A stretch of 64,000 nucleotides of DNA from Candidatus Borrarchaeum weybense (GCA_019057385.1 JAHQJS010000006.1:192001-256000); one strand, 5' to 3'; shown: positions 60,989 to 63,046, counted from the stretch's first letter. Translations and numbers: made by a program. The notes: generated from the letters alone by a model not told the origin.

Positions 60989-61516
60989 TTAGATAGGCAT
61001 AGAAGGCAAAAACTGATGCGCCAGTAATATAGTAAGTACAAAGAAAATTGCAACAATAATCCCTGATACCTTTAACCAATTTCTCTCATATTTTTCTGGT
61101 ATACCTCGAAGATCTCCAGGAGCTCCTCCTTTCAATCGTTGTTCAAACCATTTTGAAACGCGAGATCCAAAGGCTGATCCTGTAGGTGGAATTAAATCGA
61201 GGAAAAGATGCGAGCTATAACCGATGAAGAAAGCGGCTAAAAGAAACAAAACCCCGAACTCAAAACTCGTCAAAAAATAAAATACGAATAATACAGCAGG
61301 GATTAGAGGCGAATGAGTGATGGGAGATCGATGATACTTTATGCCAAAATCGAGATCCACATCGGGAGCATGAGAAGCCGCGATAACTACCAGATATCCA
61401 AGAACAGATCCGTTTATAGCTGCCAGTCGAATAACTCCACTACCAAAAAAGAAATATGCAAGAAAAAATACGGTAAACGCTATGCATGCCCAAAATTTGT
61501 GTTCAAATCTATTCAT
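60989..61516 (-). CDS. Membrane-bound metal-dependent hydrolase (YdjM-like)
   Basis: H...PDVD...HRSPITHS...SHLFLD motifs with TM helices. Confidence 0.8.
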   Translation of the reverse strand: MNRFEHKFWACIAFTVFFLAYFFFGSGVIRLAAINGSVLGYLVVIAASHAPDVDLDFGIKYHRSPITHSPLIPAVLFVFYFLTSFEFGVLFLLAAFFIGYSSHLFLDLIPPTGSAFGSRVSKWFEQRLKGGAPGDLRGIPEKYERNWLKVSGIIVAIFFVLTILLAHQFLPSMPI

Positions 61517-61525
61517 AGAATCACC

Positions 61526-62569
61526 TCAAGAATATTCACTATGAAGTGGGGATAGGAATTGTGTTCTAAGCGAAATTCGGGTTAAGATCGTACAATCTTC
61601 TTTTTTAGCGTTTTGCGTTAGACGTTTTCCGGTTTTTAGACAATGCAGGCTTAAACGATTTTTTAGATTACCACCGATATAACACAACCCTAAGGTTTTA
61701 TGAGTTACGAGTGTTCCTTTTTTCAGCCCAAGTGATAGCGTACCACCATATCTTCTTTTTATGCCCCCTTTCGCGAATTGAAAACGATGTAACTGTCTCC
61801 TGTGAAATTGTAGCGGTGTTATATAGTAAATACTTATTGTGGTCGGAAATTTTGCTCTGGTTGTAGCGGCTGCCAGTACCCAGGCATCTACACAATGAGT
61901 TTCAAAGATAGGTTGTGATTTGCTCTTCTTTTTGTGCAATCCAAAGTGTTGTCTTAACTGCTGTGTCTCGTTCCCTTGTGCTAGTATCACATTTAATTTA
62001 AGTTTTTGTAACTCGCTATAGAAATACCACTTGCCCACTTCTAATGGGCTAAAATTAGTGTTCCATCTCTTATGATGTCTCTTTTTTGTAACTGCTTGAA
62101 TATCCTCTACCACCACGTTTTGGATAGGAATGATAGTGCAGAGTTGTTTGATGATCCTTAGTTTTACATCCCATCGTGCTCTGGTGGATGGTGGTAACCT
62201 ACGTTGATTTGCTATTCGGTTTTTCTTGTTTTTTCTACGGCGAGTATTCCTTTTTCGGCGTGCCTTCCGCGCATTTCGTCTTTGTTCGACCTTTCTTTTC
62301 ACCCAAGTTATCGCTTCTGACATGATATTGACTACCGTATCACCTGTACCAACGATTGAGAACCCTTCGTACTTCGTACCTGGATCTACTCCAATGGCGA
62401 GCGGTTGTGTGACGGGTATGTGTGGATCGAATTGTAAATGAAGATAAAAGATGCCTATTTTATTCCGTTTCTTGATGGCCTTTCCTTGAGCAATGAGTTT
62501 TCGAGCTTTTGCAGGTCGACACGGCATTAATGGAGTGCCATTTTTACTAACGACAGGTATTCTACCGAT
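61526..62569 (-). CDS. isrB: IsrB RNA-guided nickase (OMEGA; RRXRR/PLMP family, no HNH)
   Basis: GTPLMPC...ARKL (PLMP), GVDPG (RuvC-I), Arg-rich bridge helix, LPPS, VVEDI (RuvC-II), HCVDA (RuvC-III), RRQLH; about 347 aa; no HNH or CxxC insertion; start non-canonical (ATC 62569) or further upstream. Confidence 0.9.
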   Translation of the reverse strand: MGRIPVVSKNGTPLMPCRPAKARKLIAQGKAIKKRNKIGIFYLHLQFDPHIPVTQPLAIGVDPGTKYEGFSIVGTGDTVVNIMSEAITWVKRKVEQRRNARKARRKRNTRRRKNKKNRIANQRRLPPSTRARWDVKLRIIKQLCTIIPIQNVVVEDIQAVTKKRHHKRWNTNFSPLEVGKWYFYSELQKLKLNVILAQGNETQQLRQHFGLHKKKSKSQPIFETHCVDAWVLAAATTRAKFPTTISIYYITPLQFHRRQLHRFQFAKGGIKRRYGGTLSLGLKKGTLVTHKTLGLCYIGGNLKNRLSLHCLKTGKRLTQNAKKEDCTILTRISLRTQFLSPLHSEYS

Positions 62570-62574
62570 TGCGG

Positions 62575-62801
62575 TCTCCCTGTCAGAGTCATGTTTCCCT
62601 TCGCCAGGGTATATAGGACATAGTCTAGTACTATTGTTGCTAGACTTGGAATTAAGTGATTCTTCCGAAGCGGGCTGGACTAGGGAGGCATCCAACCATT
62701 CTTGTAGTCCTATACACGTAGTTCCCGAAGAACTGAGGCTAGTCAACTCTTGCGTTGGTATCACCATCCCATGCCCTGTCCTCTTGGACAGGGTAGCTGA
62801 C
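62575..62801 (-). ncRNA. omegaRNA (HEARO-like) scaffold of IsrB
   Basis: GTCAGCTACCCTGTCC...GGACAGGGCATG...GTTGACTAGCCTCAG...CTACG...GGATGCCTCCCTAGTCC...GGCGAAGGGAAAC, the ordered conserved blocks of IscB/IsrB omegaRNAs directly 5' of the PLMP ORF. Confidence 0.85.
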
Positions 62802-63046
62802 AGAAACATCACCAAACAAATTCATTTTTGAATTCATTTGTTGCTTAATTCGATTGATCTAATGCAGAAATTAAGTTATACCAAATATTTAACGTTTCTC
62901 ATAAACACATTGAATTGAAAAGTTCAGACCCCTCACACCTTTATAGTGGTATAAACCTTTAAAAGCAAAATTTGCTAGTCACAGTAACCACTCCAAAGAT
63001 TTAAGTAGTGATTCATGAAACTGGTTCTCTAGAAGTTTAATGAAAG

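Follow-up and report, generated by a model that had tools for sequence, protein, structure and literature searches.

IscB and IsrB, the ancestors of Cas9, use a guide that lies outside the transposon carrying them, and so securing transcription from outside without harm to the host is a question for both groups. Here we describe an IsrB element in a stretch of 64,000 nucleotides from Candidatus Borrarchaeum weybense (GCA_019057385.1 JAHQJS010000006.1:192001-256000), called the window below, where it abuts the start codon of a ydjM-like gene. ISC transposons are known to insert at N|ATGA without target duplication, with a 5'-GTCA terminus, subterminal hairpins and boundaries drawn from empty sites (Kapitonov, Makarova, Koonin 2016, PMC4810608), and their ends are common to elements carrying an antisense tnpB (PMC4810608). 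The motif reported for DtIsrB, the IsrB of Desulfovirgula thermocuniculi, is NTGA/TTGA (Hirano et al. 2022, PMC9581776). As the guide lies beyond the right end of the element, transcription must begin in flanking DNA, and an orientation bias with upstream genes has been described (Meers et al., preprint 2023, 10.1101/2023.03.14.532601); transposase and nuclease have the motif in common (10.1101/2023.03.14.532601).

Set against these systems, the window locus is probably a non-autonomous IS200/IS605-type (ISC1) transposon with an omegaRNA and IsrB, inserted at an N|ATGA that is the ydjM start codon, between the native Shine-Dalgarno sequence (SD) and the ATG, by which the element would gain outside transcription and leave the host gene usable. 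The arrangement itself is confirmed, and this interpretation is supported at the level of sequence and comparison.

Insertion site and element boundaries

Coordinates are window positions, and the features described lie on the minus strand. At the 5' junction the host leader TTTGGTGATGTTTCT (62816-62802) is followed by GTCAGC from 62801, and at the 3' junction TCT, TGA (61528-61526), GGTGA (61525-61521) and TTCT (61520-61517) lead to the ATG at 61516-61514. Every junction sequence quoted in an initial annotation of this DNA is present on this strand. The comparison covered the window genome (G000) and four species of the same genus (G001-G004), in each of which an ortholog of ydjM was found. 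G002, G003 and G004 lack the element and read TT(T/G)GGTGA(T/C)GTTTC(T/A) joined straight to ATGAATAG, exactly the junction of the empty site that had been predicted, GGTGATGTTTCT|ATGAATAG. The alleles are TTGGGTGACGTTTCA|ATGAATAGA in G002, TTGGGTGATGTTTCT|ATGAATAGG in G003 and TTTGGTGATGTTTCT|ATGAATAGG in G004, in syntenic flanks that are 78-90% identical and alignable on either side; G001 is occupied at the identical location by the same element as G000. Because empty alleles exist in three species, the element can be delimited as 62801..61517, 1,285 bp obtained as the occupied minus the empty allele, with no target-site duplication and with an ATG that belongs to the host. The empty alleles place the ydjM ATG as the first base after the element, in agreement with the earlier claim of an insertion exactly at the host start codon. 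The 4-nt microhomology noted at that time is also real, as a TTCT ambiguity at the junction, and leaves the empty site unchanged. The ATGA at 61513..61516, host sequence in the empty alleles, is therefore the target-adjacent motif and IS200/IS605 target site and at the same time comprises the host start codon and the base after it. Precise, duplication-free insertion at the 4-bp target N|ATGA, here documented by three empty alleles, is the behavior by which ISC1 and IS200/IS605 elements are recognized. The occupied form bridges both junctions in contigs from four metagenomes (three studies); no join skipping 61517-62801 was found in the contigs of those metagenomes, which is not evidence of absence.

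The right end of the transposon (62588..62801) is the omegaRNA scaffold, which matches the Rfam HEARO model RF02033 in full (model 1-211, E=1e-16), with model position 1 at 62801 and a score of 83.2 bits that just reaches the curated cut-off of 83. Directly 5' of model position 1, at 62802..62817, lies the guide position, where the host 5' leader ends with the 16 nt GTTTGGTGATGTTTCT, the native SD GGTGAT (62813-62808) among them; in the empty alleles these bases stand before the ATG, and the earlier proposal that the guide is the host 5' untranslated region with its ribosome-binding site is in keeping with this position. The isrB gene (61526..62569) ends with the TGA at 61528-61526 and has its probable start at an ATC (62569-62567) behind a GGGAG (62580-62576). 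No ATG, GTG or TTG occurs near the PLMP motif in the five isrB copies examined (the window copy and four sisters), and GGGAG-N6-ATC-GGT-AGA (62558-62580 in the window) is kept in all five, with GGT where other subfamilies have TTG. The start is thus probably a non-canonical ATC or ATT. The product, 348 aa counted from the ATC, has RRXRR as its sole Pfam domain (E=2.6e-34), and neither Pfam nor alignment to 8DMB gave an HNH match. Its closest solved relative is DtIsrB (PDB 8DMB, E=6e-48, residues 2-300), with which the catalytic RuvC residues D/E/H/D are aligned and the segments GVDPG, VEDI and THCVDA covered. Together with a structured omegaRNA immediately 5' of the gene and a guide 5' of the scaffold, this makes the identity of the protein as an IsrB solid, and guide-dependent nicking beside an NTGA motif is predicted.

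The element end and start-codon junctions

The last bases of the element contain the sequence GAGGTGAT (61520..61527), which overlaps the isrB stop codon and stands 4 nt (TTCT) before the host ATG, as the initial annotation described. The 16S rRNA of this genome ends in GGATCACCTCCT, so that the SD consensus is AGGAGGTGATCC; the element-borne sequence matches it over 8 nt and the native GGTGAT over 6 nt. Among 2,535 putative starts, an SD match of at least 5 nt is found at -20..-7 in 31% versus 7% in the background, with a peak at -13..-10 (taken as -13..-9 for the element SD). The 5-mers of the element SD begin at -11 and -9, inside this peak, and removal of the element returns the native GGTGA to -12, the normal spacing that had been claimed for the empty site. 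The element-borne SD is thus complementary to the 16S tail at native spacing, and a role in initiation is putative. The isrB stop codon falls 4-9 nt before the junction ATG in three of five family copies examined: at 4-5 nt in the G001 and C4 copies, where the TGA lies inside GGTGA, and at 9 nt in the window copy, in which a frameshift in the decayed left-end hairpin gives an earlier stop. Such a spacing would suit translational coupling.

It might be objected that the terminal GGTGAT..TTCT is no part of the element but a target-site duplication, a second copy of the host SD region. The 5' flank GGTGATGTTTCT does resemble the last bases of the element, GGTGATTCT, and two other copies have direct repeats of 7-10 nt at the same two places. 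The copies at C6:820072, L107 and L060, at unrelated sites, nevertheless end in GGTGATTCT, and L110 in GGTGAGTCT, and none of them has that sequence in its 5' flank; further, the transposon family makes no duplications (PMC4810608). We reject this explanation as having next to no probability. The repeats in the two other copies, G000 C8:111870-113149 (minus strand) and the metagenome locus L109, read CGTCATATTT and ATTCGCA and occur just 5' of the omegaRNA and once more at the very end of the element, next to ATGA, in place of the usual GGTGATTCT, so that these occupied loci carry a seed match to their own guide beside the motif.

The wider genome was surveyed for left ends with an nhmmer profile, a loose regular-expression search having returned mostly noise. 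It contains 36 HEARO matches and about 80 left ends, which divide into those with NTGA-type and those with ATAAA-type targets; several of the latter have an ATG 0-2 nt after ATAAA. HEARO elements are reportedly found beside ATGA or GTGA. A junction was counted as a start codon if its ATG or GTG was the first codon of an open reading frame (ORF) of at least 119 aa that is closed upstream within 19 codons. This held for 10/32 NTGA-type ends and for 9/22 of those with an omegaRNA, and four further NTGA-type ends lie within 30 nt of such an ORF start. The corresponding frequency is 3.1% for all ATGA/ATGG/GTGA sites (p=3e-8) and 10.5% for those outside coding interiors (p=0.001). In 8 of the 10 junction ORFs a Pfam domain lies at the very N terminus (SMC_N/Rad50 from residue 3, FKBP from 8, HEPN from 11 and a Zn-ribbon from 3, along with SF1 helicase, GT2 and MBL domains, among others), and these N termini are therefore real.

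The SD-like character of the left end was compared with that of tnpB elements in the same genome, which have a homologous left-end hairpin in antisense orientation. A run of at least 5 nt matching the SD consensus is present in 17/27 left ends with omegaRNA cargo versus 0/10 with tnpB cargo and the homologous hairpin (Fisher p=5e-4), and in 5/32 other ends, against a genome background of 6.5%. Subfamilies of omegaRNA elements arrive at an SD-like end by different sequences (GAGGTAAT, GGAGGTGA, GGTGAT and GGGAG), and outward transcription through the left end occurs only in omegaRNA elements. The recurrence of SD-like outward left ends and start-codon junctions in the omegaRNA elements of this genome, and not in tnpB elements with homologous ends, is therefore shown. 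The single Y1_Tnp gene of the genome sits in a tnpA-tnpB element that has no omegaRNA and different ends.

The IsrB family of the window element is represented by four copies in the window genome, three in G001 and more from metagenomes, giving about 10 independent sites. The junction is ATGA at 9/10 of these and ATGG at one, with TTGA at one fragment. The usual end reads TTG-N-GGTGA(T/G)TCT, and GGTGA is kept in the last bases of all copies but one (C8). At least five sites abut long ORFs, namely those for YdjM and a DUF362 protein (329 aa) and ORFs of 249, 132 and at least 47 aa (binomial p 0.002 against the 10.5% frequency). The family survey that had been proposed thus turned out as anticipated, with the terminal GGTGA conserved, ATGA abutted and insertions enriched at true start codons. 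None of the three contrary results that the initial annotation had named, concerning the junction, the family and the ATGA motif, was seen; for its further suggestion of a regulatory cassette we have no evidence.

The main alternative is that the SD-like end is a by-product, GAGG/GGTGA being kept as the outer stem of a hairpin recognized by TnpA and as the isrB stop codon, with start-codon junctions arising from an ATGA target and the purging of insertions inside genes. The transposon left end, read outward and with family ends aligned, occupies 61517..61570. Whereas the right end has the first omegaRNA stem, the left-end hairpin required of an ISC1 element is degraded in the window copy, which folds no better than shuffles (z=-0.45); CCCC/GGGG pairing is retained in the G001 copy, and the hairpin is strong in the mini-copies described below. 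Several observations speak for a by-product or weigh against our interpretation. In the mini-copies that are mobile, TTGAGG, the core of the SD-like motif, forms the 3' arm of the hairpin at the left end; the outer stem CCTCAA/TTGAGG is fully paired, and in RNA this core would be paired too (-28.3 kcal/mol, z=-3.3), so that part of the SD likeness may be structural; ends of the TTGCG type likewise pair with CGCAA. GGTGA doubles as the isrB stop codon in the sister copies from G001 and C4. Suitable sites are common, 44% of starts being ATGA, and the enrichment over the non-coding frequency is only about threefold, with 22/32 NTGA-type ends lying away from start codons; the tests are descriptive and overstate independence, as subfamily copies share ends by descent. 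The decay of its hairpin suggests that the window copy may no longer move, or may be fixed in place, and marsh-metagenome strains (runs X5 and X6) have 61521 T>A (plus strand), which turns GAGGTGAT into GAGGTGTT and shortens the SD to GAGGTG. The same strains carry 61508 T>C, which is synonymous in ydjM. A stem retained for the transposase does not, however, account for the absence of SD runs from tnpB elements with the homologous hairpin, for the placement of the SD (GGAGGT, GGTGAT) beyond the stem in TTGCG-type ends, or for the match to the anti-SD, at native spacing, of all the subfamily ends despite their different sequences. Purging would moreover remove start-codon insertions as well, unless translation were kept. 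We consider the by-product explanation unlikely and prefer an end that preserves translation of the gene it abuts. For this preferred reading, "targeting" of start codons is inseparable from retention of such insertions by selection.

A comparable layout is found in bacteria. Among cyanobacterial isrB genes located by a tblastn search of plasmids, those of Leptolyngbya, Stanieria and Dolichospermum are followed by a hairpin, GGAGA/GGAGG/GAGGT, 4-8 nt and then ATGA, and at these three junctions a gene in the same orientation has its annotated start at the ATG, the boundaries being drawn without empty-site proof. The HEARO model finds no omegaRNA at the Leptolyngbya and Stanieria loci. The pattern is not shown at the Calothrix and Acaryochloris loci, and in Nostoc it is incomplete: the junction ATG shares its frame with dpdE, whose annotated GTG follows 7 codons later, and there is no SD. 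A tentative generalization, about which we have slightly more doubt than confidence, is that a left end preserving translation has evolved across the whole class of IscB/IsrB (ISC) transposons. In archaea as in bacteria, an outward SD, often overlapping the nuclease stop codon, would then abut an NTGA that is typically the start codon of a host gene, and such elements could settle directly at the start of expressed genes, have guide and omegaRNA made from the host promoter and leave the gene translated. The Dolichospermum plasmid locus (L121) also holds the 3' end of a group II intron (1112-1189; RF00029) directly upstream of isrB, at the place expected for an omegaRNA, with the reverse-transcriptase gene of the intron likewise upstream.

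Further forms of the element occur in the window genome. About half of the HEARO matches are nuclease-less mini-elements of 377-420 bp consisting of omegaRNA and left end (e.g., G000 C4:1252928), and several sit on start codons, including those of HEPN, FKBP and Zn-ribbon proteins. Five "solo" elements of 47 nt, each joining the first stem of the omegaRNA (GTCAAT...) to the hairpin of the left end and an SD-like linker beside GTGA or ATGA, lie at G000 C7:27582-27628, C6:128718-128764, C6:735023-735069, C6:291643-291689 and C7:400083-400129. They look like deletion products between two similar end hairpins, and none of the five has the start of a long ORF at its junction. A second IsrB copy, shared between G000 (C6:820072-821363) and G001 (L060), was considered as an independent insertion in each species and rejected, since the whole 2.6-kb region including the flanks is 92.5% identical and is better taken as one shared segment. 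At least 1.2 kb of its 5' flank shows this identity in genomes that otherwise differ by 20-25%, and the copy probably belongs to a larger mobile segment that the two species came to share recently. In G000 the isrB of this copy contains an internal TGA.

The host gene and the history of the insertion

A candidate archaeal B recognition element and TATA box of the ydjM-like gene, GAGAAACG-TTAAATAT, lies at 62885..62900, and all five species have the TTAAATAT box conserved in the same position ahead of the site, be it empty or occupied. From this promoter we infer co-transcription: a single transcript would contain the leader with the guide, the omegaRNA, isrB and ydjM. The element would in this way obtain the outside transcription that its 5' guide needs, while the host gene would stay usable by translation of ydjM from the element-borne SD, possibly helped by coupling, as isrB stops so shortly before the ATG (9 nt in the window, 4-5 nt in sisters). 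Guide and ATGA together would match the empty allele; by analogy with the published model, the nuclease would cut the excised donor site and the element would be restored. Because IsrB is a nickase, restoration by way of a double-strand break is not assured here.

The host gene itself (60989..61516) encodes an intact membrane protein of 175 aa with a weak Pfam match to YdjM (30.6 bits, cut-off 29). An alternative history is that the insertion silenced or crippled this gene, through polarity or loss of its native SD context, and that slow decay of a dispensable gene is the sole reason for the intact ORF. Genes of the YdjM type are non-essential as a rule, and ydjM (orthologs L048-L051) is unusually diverged, its synonymous divergence (dS) being 0.84-1.17 among G000, G002 and G004 versus 0.25-0.40 for neighboring genes. 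This divergence is not tied to the insertion, as it is equally high between the empty alleles of G002 and G004. The gene is moreover full length in G000, G001 and strains from four metagenomes (three studies), its orthologs in G001-G004 have 172-175 aa, and the ratio of nonsynonymous to synonymous divergence is 0.08-0.24 in all pairs, including occupied G001 versus empty G003. Genes for a Rad50/SMC-type ATPase and an FKBP stand behind the same kind of end. Loss of ydjM function is accordingly a very improbable account.

The flanking genes place G000 near G002 and G004 (dS 0.25-0.40) and far from G001 and G003 (dS 0.87-1.02), and G001 close to G003 (dS 0.20), so that the two occupied species do not form a sister pair, and each of them has a close relative with an empty site. 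The isrB genes of G000 and G001 differ at a dS of 0.39 (89.4% nucleotide identity), and the G001 flanks are G003-like right up to both junctions. The contrast between this 0.39 and the 0.87-1.02 of flanking host genes raises the possibility that the same start-codon site was captured repeatedly in different species. As the dS of one gene, it is weak evidence that favors a second capture over one old insertion with three precise losses.

Comparison with described systems

By its content the element is unexceptional within an already known family. Like DtIsrB (8DMB), the window protein lacks HNH, has about 350 aa with a PLMP motif and a split RuvC, and is preceded by an omegaRNA 5' of the gene, with an NTGA-type motif. 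It differs in its roughly 40% identity, its Asgard archaeal host, its probable ATC start and a HEARO score just at the cut-off, and it is known from sequence alone. The IStrons, which combine a group I intron with an IS200/605 element, are alike in outcome in that the element is harmless to the gene it hits (Tourasse et al. 2014, PMC4227781). In that account IStrons splice out of RNA, whereas the remedy proposed here is translational, by a new SD and possibly coupling, and the window element is not an IStron.

An SD-bearing left end that lands on start codons, if confirmed, would be a simple answer to the problem of outside transcription: as the leading cistron of a host operon, the element would pass ribosomes to the host gene behind it. 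The layout recurs in this genome and on plasmids of certain cyanobacteria, and elements may thereby draw on host promoters and yet not silence the gene. It would also explain why NTGA motifs are common in the family, provide a rule for locating element boundaries and native guides, and alert annotators to the fact that a start codon directly behind such an element is genuine; testable loci exist in culturable cyanobacteria, among them pLBX of Leptolyngbya boryana, where isrB is followed by a DUF1257 gene.

A start-codon target or an SD-bearing left end was not found in the searchable literature, with Weinberg 2009 and Altae-Tran 2021 lying outside the search. Meers et al. report the orientation bias only, with no start-codon insertion or translation-preserving left end (10.1101/2023.03.14.532601), and neither "start codon" nor "Shine" occurs in PMC4810608. 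The ISC1/ISC2 transposons of that paper, such as ISC1-1_MA of Microcystis, share with the window element the GTCA terminus, insertion at N|ATGA without duplication and ends in common with tnpB elements (PMC4810608); what the present analysis adds is an SD facing outward at the 3' terminus, together with start-codon junctions in excess. Insertion at N|ATGA and the dependence on transcription from outside were thus already known, and what is new is the combination of a start-codon insertion with an element-borne SD.

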